From Escherichia coli (lineage in GTDB: Bacteria; Pseudomonadota; Gammaproteobacteria; Enterobacterales; Enterobacteriaceae): a DNA stretch of 62,123 nucleotides. Where the stretch lies: the NCBI RefSeq assembly GCF_003334815.1, contig NZ_QOWO01000026.1; one strand, given 5' to 3'. The notes below the pieces were generated by a model. It was not told the DNA's origin. It saw nothing but the letters and a program-made list of their open reading frames with translations, and searched no databases. The translations under genes and the position numbers were made by a program. The first letter of the stretch is position 1. Each line of letters opens with the position of its first letter. Of this stretch, positions 59,676-61,511 are shown one piece after another.

Positions 59676-59749
59676 AGCGGGCGTAGTTCAATGGTAGAAC
59701 GAGAGCTTCCCAAGCTCTATACGAGGGTTCGATTCCCTTCGCCCGCTCC
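59676..59749 (+). tRNA. glyU: tRNA-Gly (anticodon CCC)
   Basis: GCGGGCGTAGTTCAATGGTAGAACGAGAGCTTCCCAAGCTCTATACGAGGGTTCGATTCCCTTCGCCCGCTCCA: cloverleaf with 7-bp acceptor stem, anticodon CCC at 59708-59710, encoded CCA end. Confidence 0.93.
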
Positions 59750-59864
59750 ATGACACTTCTTAAAGTATTCCAACTTACTGAATCCTAAGGGATATGGCTT
59801 AACGCCTCCTTGCAGAGTTACTTACTGTAACCCACTGTGTAACCCTCTCAGGGCATACAGACAT

Positions 59865-61511
59865 ATGATTCAGCTATCCAGCAGTCACAAACTTCCAGCC
59901 GTCTCCTATCTCTACCAGCGTAACGGCGTCTACTACTTCCGTCTTCGGGTCAGACAATCAAACAATGATAGAATGACCTCAATATCATTACGGACCAAGG
60001 ATAGACGCACCGCTATGGCTCACTCAAGGCACATCAAGGCAGCACTCAAGGCAATACACGCAGACAGACCCAACGCTACCTATGAGGAAATGAGGGAGCA
60101 CCTTAAGGACATCGCTGAGTGTGAACTGTCTATGGGCCGTTCAGATCTCTTTGAGCCTGACATGAGGGATATCTACCGGGACCAATACGGAGAACTTGGT
60201 GAGAGCCTTACCGATGCTCTGGCTAGTGAGCCGCTAAGTATTGACCAGCATCGTTACATCAATGAGGCCCTGAAGGTGCTAAAAGCCTGCATGAGGCGTA
60301 TCGAAGCGGGAGACAGTCAGCCTCTGATAGATTACGTCGATCATTTTAATGATATTGATAGGCAAGATAGCCAAGTAGCCTCTGTGTCCCTATCTGTTAA
60401 TGCTCCAGAAGTAAAACCAGAAGTAAAACCAGAAGTAAAACTAGAAGTAAAACCAGAAGTTACGCCTAGCATTACCATAGCGAGCCTCTTTGAGCAATAC
60501 GAAGCGGAGAATTATCAGAACTGGAAGCCTGCAACCTTAAGGGAAAACAAGGCGTCACACGCTGCGTTAATCGAAATATTCGACCATCTGGGTCTCAATG
60601 CAGACGCTAACAGGGCTGACATGCTTAAGGTCCGTGATGTGCTCCAGCAGTTACCTAGGAACCGTAAGCAGCGCTTCAAGGATGCCCCACTTGCTGACCT
60701 GTTGAGCCGTGAAGATAAGACAGATTGTCTGGATGTCGTTACCATCAACAACAAGTATCTTATTAAGATGGCTGCTGTCTTTAGGTGGGCTGTGCGCAAT
60801 GACTTGATTAAAAAGAACATGACTGAGGGTCTGGAGCTTAAAGTCCCTCAGCGTAAAGCCTCAGGGGCCCGTAACGCCTTCTCTACGGAGCAGGTGGGGC
60901 AACTACTGGTCGCAGCTAAGGCATACTCTCAGAAGACCTCTGGTAAGCCCTACCACTATTACGTTACGGCTTTGGCTGCTATCACTGGGGCGAGACTCAA
61001 TGAAATAGCCCAACTACAGGTCAAAGACGTCAGGACCACTGAGGCGGGAACCGTTTATATTCATATCAATGAAGACGATAGTAGTCTACCCGGTAAGAGC
61101 ATCAAGAACGCTCATAGTGACCGCTGTGTGCCTCTGGTCGATGGGGCCTATGGTTTTATATTGGCTGACTTTATGAGGTTGGTTGAGACCCGTAGAGGCG
61201 CTGATGGTGATGACGCTATGGTGTTCGATGGTCTTCGCCTCATGAAGAACGGTTACGGTGAGCAGGTGAGTAAATGGTTTAATCGGACGTTGTTGCCTAA
61301 AGTCCTCGCAGATCGTAGCGGCTTAGCGTTTCACTCGTTTAGACATACAGTTGCGACCCAGTTAAAACAACATGGGGTCGAGTTGGCGTATGCACAGGCG
61401 ATCATGGGGCATAGTTCAGGGTCTATTACTTACGACCGTTATGCTAAAGAGGTTGAGGTTGATAGGCTGGTCAATGTGATGGCTGATGTTTATAAGGAGA
61501 TTGTGGGGTAA
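59865..61511 (+). CDS. Tyrosine-type site-specific integrase (large, 548 aa)
   Basis: C-terminal catalytic signature HSFRHTVATQL ... IMGHSSGSITYDRYAKE (His-x-x-Arg, His, Tyr nucleophile); N-terminal arm-type region; internal PEVK repeat linker; located next to a tRNA gene. Confidence 0.85.
   Translation: MIQLSSSHKLPAVSYLYQRNGVYYFRLRVRQSNNDRMTSISLRTKDRRTAMAHSRHIKAALKAIHADRPNATYEEMREHLKDIAECELSMGRSDLFEPDMRDIYRDQYGELGESLTDALASEPLSIDQHRYINEALKVLKACMRRIEAGDSQPLIDYVDHFNDIDRQDSQVASVSLSVNAPEVKPEVKPEVKLEVKPEVTPSITIASLFEQYEAENYQNWKPATLRENKASHAALIEIFDHLGLNADANRADMLKVRDVLQQLPRNRKQRFKDAPLADLLSREDKTDCLDVVTINNKYLIKMAAVFRWAVRNDLIKKNMTEGLELKVPQRKASGARNAFSTEQVGQLLVAAKAYSQKTSGKPYHYYVTALAAITGARLNEIAQLQVKDVRTTEAGTVYIHINEDDSSLPGKSIKNAHSDRCVPLVDGAYGFILADFMRLVETRRGADGDDAMVFDGLRLMKNGYGEQVSKWFNRTLLPKVLADRSGLAFHSFRHTVATQLKQHGVELAYAQAIMGHSSGSITYDRYAKEVEVDRLVNVMADVYKEIVG
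60405..60464 (+). repeat. 12-bp tandem repeat x5 inside the integrase ORF (encodes PEVK repeats)
   Basis: ccagaagtaaaa x3, ctagaagtaaaa, ccagaagttacg; in-frame, translated APEVKPEVKPEVKLEVKPEVTP. Confidence 0.9.

Follow-up and report, generated by a model that had tools for sequence, protein, structure and literature searches.

To what kind of genetic element does the large integrase gene at the 3' end of a glycine tRNA gene in an Escherichia coli contig belong, and where does that element end? The window analysed here, i.e. the whole stretch of DNA, is the entire contig QOWO01000026.1 of assembly GCA_003334815.1, which is 62,123 bp long and stops inside an insertion sequence (IS). A first-pass annotation, made from the letters alone, had described a tyrosine integrase with a repetitive linker directly behind the tRNA gene glyU, had regarded it as horizontally acquired and missing in K-12, and had predicted that a direct repeat of the tRNA end would mark the far side of an island. 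All of this was found, as reported below; the main interest lies beyond it, in that the island is tiny and carries T7-like cis-acting signals in its non-coding half and in part of the gene for the integrase (int). In our reading, the integrase probably belongs to an apparently undescribed family of satellites ('hitchers') of the T7-group phages (Autographiviridae, Studiervirinae), residing at tRNA-Gly(CCC).

A single tRNA, tRNA-Gly(CCC), was detected in the window by ARAGORN, at 59677-59750 on the plus strand, one base after the start of 59676 originally assigned to the locus; the other coordinates stand as first given. This tRNA (glyU) is the integration target, and also flanks relatives of the element at 10 other genome loci. 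Its last 23 nucleotides (nt), TTCGATTCCCTTCGCCCGCTCCA (59728-59750, plus strand), form the attL core, which is repeated as attR in relatives. Within the window only one copy of the repeat is present, and the far end of the island is not visible, because the contig ends first. A complete element was found in a 181-kb contig of another assembly, designated L034 (L numbers denote the related loci), which encodes an integrase protein identical to that of the window. There the element spans positions 9887-12722 and is a precise insertion of 2,836 bp between two 23-nt repeats; the attR copy is exactly the string proposed in the first-pass annotation, and the flank past it is identical to the K-12 sequence following glyU. 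The site is empty in K-12 MG1655, which has the order actS-glyU-ygeQ and no integrase. Direct repeats bounding the element were found in more than 20 relatives and are shared by all larger E. coli forms; they measure 23 nt in L034, L002, L003 and L004 and 18 nt in L001, and are also seen in other genera. Comparison of glyU among E. coli genomes, suggested earlier as a check, gave an empty site in K-12 and elements of several sizes in other strains. The closest integrase gene among 5,426 complete E. coli genomes has 94% DNA identity, none being the same, and the conserved core described below is present in 91 of these genomes, a patchy distribution in keeping with horizontal acquisition.

The integrase gene (59865-61511, plus strand; 548 amino acids, aa) starts with an ATG at the 115th base after the CCA end of the tRNA, as first noted, leaving a gap of 114 nt. 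The protein is composed of an N-terminal DUF6538 domain (Pfam, residues 15-63, E 2.4e-5), a variable linker and a Phage_integrase catalytic domain (PF00589, residues 341-528, E 4.4e-18), and matches PHROG 1 'integrase' (E 1.7e-45). Catalytic motifs were recognised by inspection: ARLNE at 376, GKSIK (the K region) at 410, HSFRHT at 490, GHSS at 515 and TYDRY at 522. With its reading frame and motifs preserved, the gene shows none of the degeneration of a pseudogene that had been considered earlier, and by its sequence the protein is an intact tyrosine recombinase. The linker contains PEVK-type repeats, encoded by a 12-nt tandem unit (CCAGAAGTAAAA, 4.7 copies according to TRF, 60405-60460, plus strand), and is described as variable because this repeat is missing or different in relatives. 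Two candidate arm-type binding repeats, CTGTAACC and GTGTAACC, start 12 nt apart at 59825 and 59837 (59825-59844, plus strand) and fit the pattern [C/G]TGTAACC; a pair matching the same pattern was found 64-76 nt ahead of attR in L034 and L002. The arm-binding side would thus comprise the DUF6538 N-terminus and paired repeats flanking att on both sides.

Relatives of the integrase occur across Enterobacterales, with 65-86% aa identity. Among phages, full-length homologues (about 31% identity) were found only in Pseudomonas phages of about 40 kb, the closest being the integrase of vB_PsyP_3MF5 (L065, 39455-40963; Autographiviridae; Studiervirinae; Warsawvirus), which is placed between the last, phiOR-equivalent phage promoter and the right terminal repeat. 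Since the nearest phage integrases sit at the end of a T7-like genome, the elements resemble the integrase of such a T7-like phage together with its cis-acting genome ends, in a reduced and dependent form; vB_PsyP_3MF5 is a plausible ancestor type.

The first group of T7-like signals consists of promoters. Downstream of int, TRF detected a 138-nt module repeated 2.1 times in tandem (61573-61855, plus strand; alignment A1), and in each copy a conserved upstream block is followed by a T7 promoter and by an initially transcribed sequence that is conserved as well. Promoter 1 (TAATACGACTCACTATAGAGAGA, 61632-61654, plus strand) matches the T7 core at 18 of 18 positions, and promoter 2 (TAATGCGACTCACTATAGAGAGA, 61770-61792, plus strand) has one mismatch; TAATACGACTCACTATAG is accordingly exact at 61632, with a one-mismatch copy at 61770, where 0.03 occurrences are expected by chance. 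In relatives this match is longer, 23-26 nt with GGGAGA included, and is identical to phiOR of T7 and Ebrios. Relatives were then collected by using the integrase (65-86% aa identity) from 17 genomes, belonging to Klebsiella, Citrobacter, Enterobacter, Proteus, Pectobacterium, Buttiauxella, Shimwellia, Kluyvera, Lonsdalea, Rouxiella, Serratia and Edaphovirga. In fourteen of these 17, one to four promoters of the type used by single-subunit RNA polymerases are present on the plus strand, within about 0.1-1.5 kb of the int stop codon. The CACTATAGG core occurs 28 times on the plus strand of 15 elements, where 0.32 occurrences are expected; none was found on the minus strand of the same elements, nor in 260 kb of flanking chromosome.

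The specificity region of the promoters varies by genus. The Klebsiella promoter is identical at 26 of 26 positions to annotated promoters of K11, KP32 and K5, is present in 11-13 copies per phage genome, and 382 of the 433 records matching it are Klebsiella phages; this K11-type promoter adjoins a T7-type promoter in the same element. The Citrobacter promoter matches T7-like phages of Cronobacter, Enterobacter and Shigella, and the Proteus-type promoter has 27/27 identity with the Vibrio phages ICP3 and N4. Two promoter variants therewith match, in sequence, real phages of plausible hosts. The best matches in phages are repeatedly located at the right genome end, i.e. at the phiOR position. 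A second, imperfect promoter-like sequence, CAATACGACTTACTAATAGGAGACAC, resembling T7 class II promoters with a one-base insertion, was noticed about 230 nt upstream of the first cargo gene in two related elements (L002, 16645-16690; L004, about 16700-16725).

The second signal lies within int. The 20 nt at 60380-60399 (plus strand), CTCTGTGTCCCTATCTGTTA, are identical at 20 of 20 positions to T7 nt 149-168 and form a mimic of the T7-group concatemer junction (CJ). Since the T7 record ends in CTCTGTGTCCCT, this 20-mer, in which CTCTGTGTCCCT is followed by ATCTGTTA, spans the right boundary of the 160-bp terminal repeat; the T7 segment also covers the class II pause signal of T7 RNA polymerase. 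The same CJ sequence is present in K11 at the end of a 180-bp terminal repeat, and the GenBank record of this phage labels CTATCTGTT (nt 180-188) 'concatemeric junction'. The CJ is reportedly needed for concatemer processing, as ascribed to Lyakhov in 1997 and to Zhang and Studier in 2004. It is also one of the two natural terminators of T7 RNA polymerase, a class II pause and termination site with a strictly conserved 7-base motif (bioRxiv 10.64898/2026.02.12.705533).

The exact CJ 17-mer, or a close variant of it, was found on the plus strand of almost every relative (17-20-mer identity to T7 and K11), in the same orientation as the promoters, which is the functional one. Inside the hypervariable linker the CJ encodes a conserved island, 'SVSLSV', with near-fixed codons: 14 of 16 sequences use CTA, the rarest leucine codon of E. 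coli, for leucine. The CJ motif of the sister element L030 is found at residues 15-21 of a different integrase. The codon counts and this relocation, on which the argument was built, point to selection acting on the CJ as DNA. The CJ was not singled out by a sliding-window test of third-codon-position conservation, because the window of the test took in the variable flanks. The T7 CJ sequence has been described, in addition, as a context-dependent sigma-70 promoter (bioRxiv 10.64898/2026.02.12.705533); if this applies to the mimic too, it could start a host-polymerase transcript over the 3' two-thirds of int.

The third signal corresponds to the left boundary of the terminal repeat. A one-mismatch search for left ends similar to TCTCACAG gave a chance-level scatter and was replaced by the alignment of a 70-nt probe across the T7 and K11 boundary (in T7, between TTTAAAATATACCATAAAAATCTGAGTGACTA and TCTCACAGT), evaluated against shuffled controls. 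The probe scored 37-54 in 12 elements (L002, L004, L011, L023, L028, L029, L038, L040, L042, L046, L058 and L060), versus maxima of 28-36 for shuffled sequences; most members of the family thus have a left-boundary mimic. The mimic is always on the plus strand, and in the 11 tRNA-Gly elements among these 12 strong cases it is located 212-268 nt, mostly 246-253 nt, from the end of attR. Left-boundary mimics match only T7/T3-group phages, at the extreme right end of their genomes, within features whose annotation reads 'right terminal repeat' or 'redundant direct terminal repeat'. One such match, to T3 at 37944-37988 of 38208, has 86.7% identity over 45 nt.

In the integrated state the CJ, in int and near attL, and the left boundary, near attR, are found at opposite ends of the element. 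Excision joins them, and the resulting order is promoters, core, AT-rich array, hairpin, cargo, left-boundary mimic, attP, 5' part of int and CJ. This is the order of T7, in which phiOR is followed by the left end of the terminal repeat, the repeat itself and the CJ. The pseudo-terminal repeat so defined would have a length of about 925 nt in L002, as against 351 nt in L029.

Promoters are followed by a conserved non-coding core of about 160 nt (61885-62046 in the window, plus strand), including an invariant 21-mer, CATCCTTTCAGGGGCGGGATG. The core is 90-100% conserved in the 91 complete E. coli genomes that contain it, where it is always chromosomal, and was also found in other genera and in 24 metagenome contigs. 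Its consensus fold features a long-range stem, formed by ACTTATCG and CGATAAGT, and an inner hairpin; three compensatory pairs distinguish E. coli-type from Klebsiella-type cores (window 61885-62046; L011, 7239-7405; L028, 2601-2778). A Rfam scan detected the tRNA and no family matching the core, and the transcript from promoter to core folds no better than shuffled sequences (z -1.7). From these sequence features, the core is possibly a structured RNA made by the phage polymerase, a DNA hairpin or a protein-binding site. Past the core, AT-rich repeat arrays of the ACTTAAAGACAC type are found (48 nt repeated 4.8 times in L034), which resemble the CCTAAAGAC(C/A) arrays of T7, and a GGTGAT..ATCACC hairpin parallels those found downstream of phiOR in T7 and K11. 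A T7 origin is made up of a T7 promoter with an AT-rich region behind it. When the whole non-coding region was compared by BLAST with 50,697 phage records, promoters alone were matched, and the same result was obtained in a local BLAST against the T7 and Ebrios concatemer junction; the non-coding block is hence not simply copied phage DNA.

Members of the family are precisely bounded, range in size between 2.8 and 6.6 kb and are distributed over at least 12 genera of Enterobacterales. The lineage of the window, as seen in L034, consists of int and 1.07 kb of non-coding DNA with no cargo gene. A 4.2-kb form (L002, L004) contains int, the non-coding block, a KilA-N-like gene of 187 aa and a gene of 157 aa; forms of 6-7 kb are represented by L001 and L038, and IS-riddled versions by L003 and L039. 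In 6.4-kb members the order is int, a DUF4145 gene, the promoter block, a Bro-N/Rha/KilA-N-like gene, a gene of 60-80 aa, DUF6971 and a gene of 326-402 aa. Cargo genes lie directly downstream of the promoters and differ between strains. The 4.2-6.6-kb forms thus add 2-5 small genes to int, and no replicase, terminase, portal or tail gene was detected in scans with PHROG, NCBIfam and Pfam.

The DUF4145 gene corresponds over its full length to PD-T7-4, now renamed RAZR (E 8e-99 in L011). It is present in L011, L014, L028, L038 and L039, whereas the window and the 2.8-kb and 4.2-kb forms lack it. It follows the int stop directly, which it abuts or overlaps, and its place is upstream of the promoters (L011, 6397-7026; L038, 8153-8785; L039, 8201-8830). 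RAZR is described as a zinc-finger/HEPN RNase which senses the portal of T7 and T3, assembling around its ring, causes abortive infection and works from its native promoter (PMC13017515); Vassallo et al. (PMC9519451) state only that PD-T7-4 frequently overlaps an integrase gene. One further cargo protein gave a weak match to PD-T4-2_B.

The 326-402-aa family (L011, 9402-10610; L022, 14493-15590; L001, 25947-27068; L038, 11243-12370) had no match in sequence searches of PHROG, NCBIfam, PADLOC and PDB. An AlphaFold model of the protein, with a predicted template modelling (TM) score of 0.63 and a predicted local distance difference test (pLDDT) of 75-88 in the core, matches only HK97-fold capsids and encapsulins (111 PDB and 128 viral structures at E<=1e-3, TM 0.3-0.5), and on this model the protein is a probable HK97-like capsid protein. 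The DUF6971 protein (136-163 aa), which always precedes it, could act as a scaffold. A capsid gene of its own is unusual for an element of 6.4 kb.

Evidence for a free form came from metagenomes. Two contigs from different samples, L029 (assembled by MEGAHIT, with a terminal overlap of 141 nt) and L030 (assembled by SPAdes), are 100% identical circular permutations of the same 6,487-bp sequence, and document a circular or tandem (concatemeric) assembly of this sister element. Its gene order is Rha, 60-aa gene, DUF6971, 378-aa gene, 45-aa gene and int, and it includes two promoters of phage type, the hairpin, the mimic of the left boundary and the CJ.

What the analysis shows comprises the features together with their statistics, order and orientation, a free form of the sister element and the fold assignment; from these the following life cycle may be proposed. 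The element would remain silent at the 3' end of tRNA-Gly(CCC) until a T7-like phage infects the cell, when the single-subunit RNA polymerase of the phage would read the phiOR-like promoters. Transcription would enter the AT-rich array and the hairpin, laid out as downstream of phiOR in T7, and the transcript would both express the cargo and prime replication by the phage replisome, as at T7 origins. Excision by the integrase would join the ends, so that left-boundary mimic, attP, int start and CJ would make up a pseudo-terminal repeat of about 0.35-0.9 kb, and the phage terminase would process and package concatemers of the element, with predicted ends at the left boundary between CTA and TCTAACAGT and, at the CJ, immediately after GTGTCCCT. 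In full-size members the HK97-fold capsid-like protein and the anti-T7 RNase RAZR would also be produced. A more ambitious version of this proposal is put forward tentatively: the elements may be the first satellites found for virulent phages of the T7 group, may depend on the integrase as their sole protein, may recruit RNA polymerase, replisome and terminase of the helper by DNA mimicry (promoter arrays, which in some genera match known T7-like phages of the host, a phiOR-like origin and both terminal-repeat boundaries) and may couple packaging to excision, because the pseudo-terminal repeat across attP exists only once the element is excised, and full-size members may build small HK97 capsids and police the portal with RAZR.

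Several points weigh against the satellite interpretation. Induction, replication, packaging and transfer are themselves inferred from sequence. In the tRNA-Gly lineage (E. coli/Klebsiella-type core), 24 of 24 metagenome contigs are integrated, the circular form being found only for the sister family with a different integrase. Three matches in IMG/VR are integrated copies as well and, judged by the form of their identifiers alone, appear to come from predictions in isolate genomes and not from viromes; neither they nor the 24 contigs gave evidence of packaging. Sequenced phage genomes or lysates contained no element DNA in a BLAST comparison with 50,697 phage records. No recognisable excisionase gene is present in the elements, and the promoters are found downstream of int. 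The killing of T7-infected cells by RAZR is seemingly at odds with T7 as a helper, although known satellites block their helpers too. The capsid-fold model is only moderately confident (pLDDT 65, TM 0.3-0.5), and no Proteus phage is among the listed best matches of the Proteus-type promoter. Beyond promoters, CJ and left boundary, the elements are like T7 in layout only. An enrichment of T7 primase pentamers was seen in the cis region, but inside tandem repeats, for which reason it is not independent evidence and is suggestive only. Finally, the window copy is cut by IS10 and has no left-boundary mimic.

The same signals could also serve the host. In a phage-polymerase-triggered defence islet, or decoy, cargo (KilA-N/Bro-N/Rha-like proteins and others) would be induced only by the RNA polymerase of a T7-like phage and the mimics would soak up polymerase, primase and terminase, protecting the cell with no phage packaging or transfer, and the integrase would move the islet by other means. 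The presence of a validated anti-T7 gene, RAZR/PD-T7-4, in the larger elements, the variable cargo directly downstream of the promoters and the weak PD-T4-2_B match all fit such an islet, and satellites and defence islets overlap in practice. We nevertheless consider it unlikely: the 2.8-kb lineage is free of cargo, yet keeps int, promoters, CJ and the origin-like array, and RAZR is located upstream of the promoters and reported to be functional from its native one. A decoy leaves unexplained the terminal-repeat boundaries, joined in T7 order by excision only, as well as the capsid-fold protein and the circular or concatemeric form.

Alternatively, the elements might be decayed remnants of an integrase-bearing T7-like prophage of the Warsawvirus type, of which only integrase and genome ends are left, with no present function. 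This would agree with the location of the nearest phage integrases, in Studiervirinae phages of about 40 kb, between phiOR-equivalent promoter and right terminal repeat, with the exact T7-type genome ends carried by the elements, and with the degraded state of the window copy, where the left-boundary mimic is lost and IS10 intervenes. Decay, however, would not give the same 4-6.6-kb architecture with intact attL and attR in at least 12 genera, nor arrays combining K11-type and T7-type promoters in one element, a CJ kept at codon level inside int, a left-boundary mimic at fixed position and a core 90-100% conserved in 91 E. coli genomes; moreover, no fragment of RNA polymerase, DNA polymerase, portal or tail genes was found in the PHROG, NCBIfam and Pfam scans. 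A remnant is a good account of the origin of the family and a poor one of its present state, for which we hold it to be very improbable. The last alternative, an ordinary small tRNA-linked islet in which nothing but the integrase is functional and coincidence or contamination by laboratory vectors accounts for the T7-like motifs, suits the entirely conventional integrase, att repeats and tRNA target but is effectively already refuted by exact 17-26-nt matches to three T7 cis-signals in the same orientation, far beyond chance, and by the occurrence of the motifs, with no vector sequence alongside, in metagenomes and in natural isolates of diverse hosts and countries, as well as in further genera whose promoters have other specificities.

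If the elements are satellites, their closest functional analogue is PICMI, found in Vibrionaceae: these are satellites of virulent phages, about 6 kb long, with defence genes and no capsid-remodelling genes (PMC10803314). Their concatemers are packaged in helper-sized heads, apparently by a headful mechanism with no identified pac site (PMC10803314). PICMIs differ in integrating next to fis and in encoding Int, AlpA and a replication function, and the paper describing them mentions no T7-like phages, Autographiviridae or helper-polymerase promoters (PMC10803314). The present elements are found in Enterobacterales at tRNA-Gly(CCC), have T7-type promoters, CJ and boundary mimics, and were not assigned to PICMI, as they have neither a fis site nor a gene for AlpA or a replication protein.

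PICI, cfPICI and P4-like elements share with the present ones an integrase, a tRNA or gene target and the exploitation of a helper; among them, cfPICIs have genes for an HK97 capsid of their own, and defence hotspots are found in P4 and PICIs. They are larger (10-15 kb), contain Stl/AlpA repressors, primase-replicases and either terS/ppi/sid/psu or whole capsid modules, and depend on protein-protein signalling to exploit temperate siphoviruses or myoviruses, whereas the link proposed here is the cis-DNA mimicry of a virulent podovirus. Membership in PICI or cfPICI was rejected, as scans with PHROG, NCBIfam and Pfam detected no Stl/AlpA, primase-replicase, terS/ppi or capsid-portal-protease families, the size is 2.8-6.6 kb and the HK97-like protein stands alone; no PHROG or NCBIfam match to the alpha primase or to sid/psu/delta was found that would suggest a P4-like element. 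A temperate T7-like prophage was similarly discarded, since 2.8-6.6 kb between intact att sites, with no RNA polymerase, DNA polymerase or structural genes, compare with about 40 kb for such a phage. Warsawvirus-type phages such as vB_PsyP_3MF5, with their full-length integrase homologue (31%) and the same classes of promoters and ends, are themselves complete 40-kb phages endowed with RNA polymerase, replisome and structural genes, and their integrase is on the strand opposite to the phage genes.

The same set of cis-elements is found in T7-transducing plasmids: Chung and Hinkle (1990, J Mol Biol 216) reportedly showed that plasmids with an origin associated with a T7 promoter and the CJ are amplified in the course of T7 infection and packaged as concatemers of about 40 kb in T7 particles. 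Those plasmids are laboratory constructs of real T7 DNA, whereas the signals described here are natural and joined to integrase and att; unlike in the plasmids, the pseudo-terminal repeat is here split by integration. As to the RAZR/PD-T7-4 locus, the DUF4145 gene of the 6.4-kb members is RAZR, adjoining the integrase as described, and the window copy is a form without it. A term search of the two RAZR papers (PMC9519451; PMC13017515) returned no T7 promoters and no satellite and, in PMC13017515, no integrase; both characterise the defence protein and not the element carrying it. Full-text literature searches found neither an integrative element of a chromosome with T7-type promoters or CJ mimics nor a satellite of T7-like phages.

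As textbook examples of virulent phages, T7 and its relatives are widely used in phage therapy and biotechnology; to our knowledge they have no known satellite and are not seen as vehicles of gene transfer. If the proposed life cycle is correct, T7-like phages are parasitised and able to transfer DNA of the host, an integrase and about 1 kb of cis-signals can be all that a mobile element is reduced to, and chromosomal promoter arrays record the T7-like phages met by a lineage. The element also gives a genomic and biological context to RAZR (PD-T7-4), and offers natural compact cassettes responsive to T7, K11 or T3 for engineering. Strains used with T7 expression systems, or exposed to T7-like therapeutic phages, may harbour elements responding to the phage polymerase.

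The copy in the window contains int, CJ, two promoters and core, and is interrupted immediately after GGCTTAACT, just before the AT-rich repeat array, by the left end of IS10/ISVsa5 (IS4 family; 62047-62123, plus strand), a feature that had escaped the first-pass annotation. About 2,000 plasmids contain IS ends with 100% identity to this one, and the adjoining gene is annotated there as an IS4-like ISVsa5 family transposase; L034 continues uninterrupted at the same point. Because the contig ends in IS10, the assembly breaks at 62123 and attR is not visible. L034, and hence presumably also the window copy, has lost the left-boundary mimic by deletion; with the mimic lost and the element split by IS10, the window copy is probably no longer mobilisable.

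Between promoters and core, a (CTCTAA) microsatellite of 5.2 units was detected by TRF at 61859-61889 (plus strand), preceded by a (CTA) run. The (CTA) run has 4 units in the window (61840-61889 region) versus 19 in L034 (11976-12058), and (CTCTAA) has 5 versus 3; such changes between near-identical strains suggest rapid slippage, which perhaps tunes spacing or transcript leaders.

Some related loci deviate from the common arrangement. In strain 21AR0133 a second, unrelated island of 10 kb, with its own 650-aa integrase, is inserted in tandem at glyU behind the first element (L001, 27494-37657), and the att repeat occurs a third time at its end. In L019 and L027, degenerate att copies without the tRNA lie upstream, both at about 9866. 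A variant with a 534-aa integrase has the same CJ and core (L008, 3470-3780; L010, 1546-1856), with three T7 promoters in L008 and L009, and adjoins a Met-Arg-Thr-Gly(TCC) tRNA cluster, not glyU; it may represent a second integration site, possibly within a prophage.

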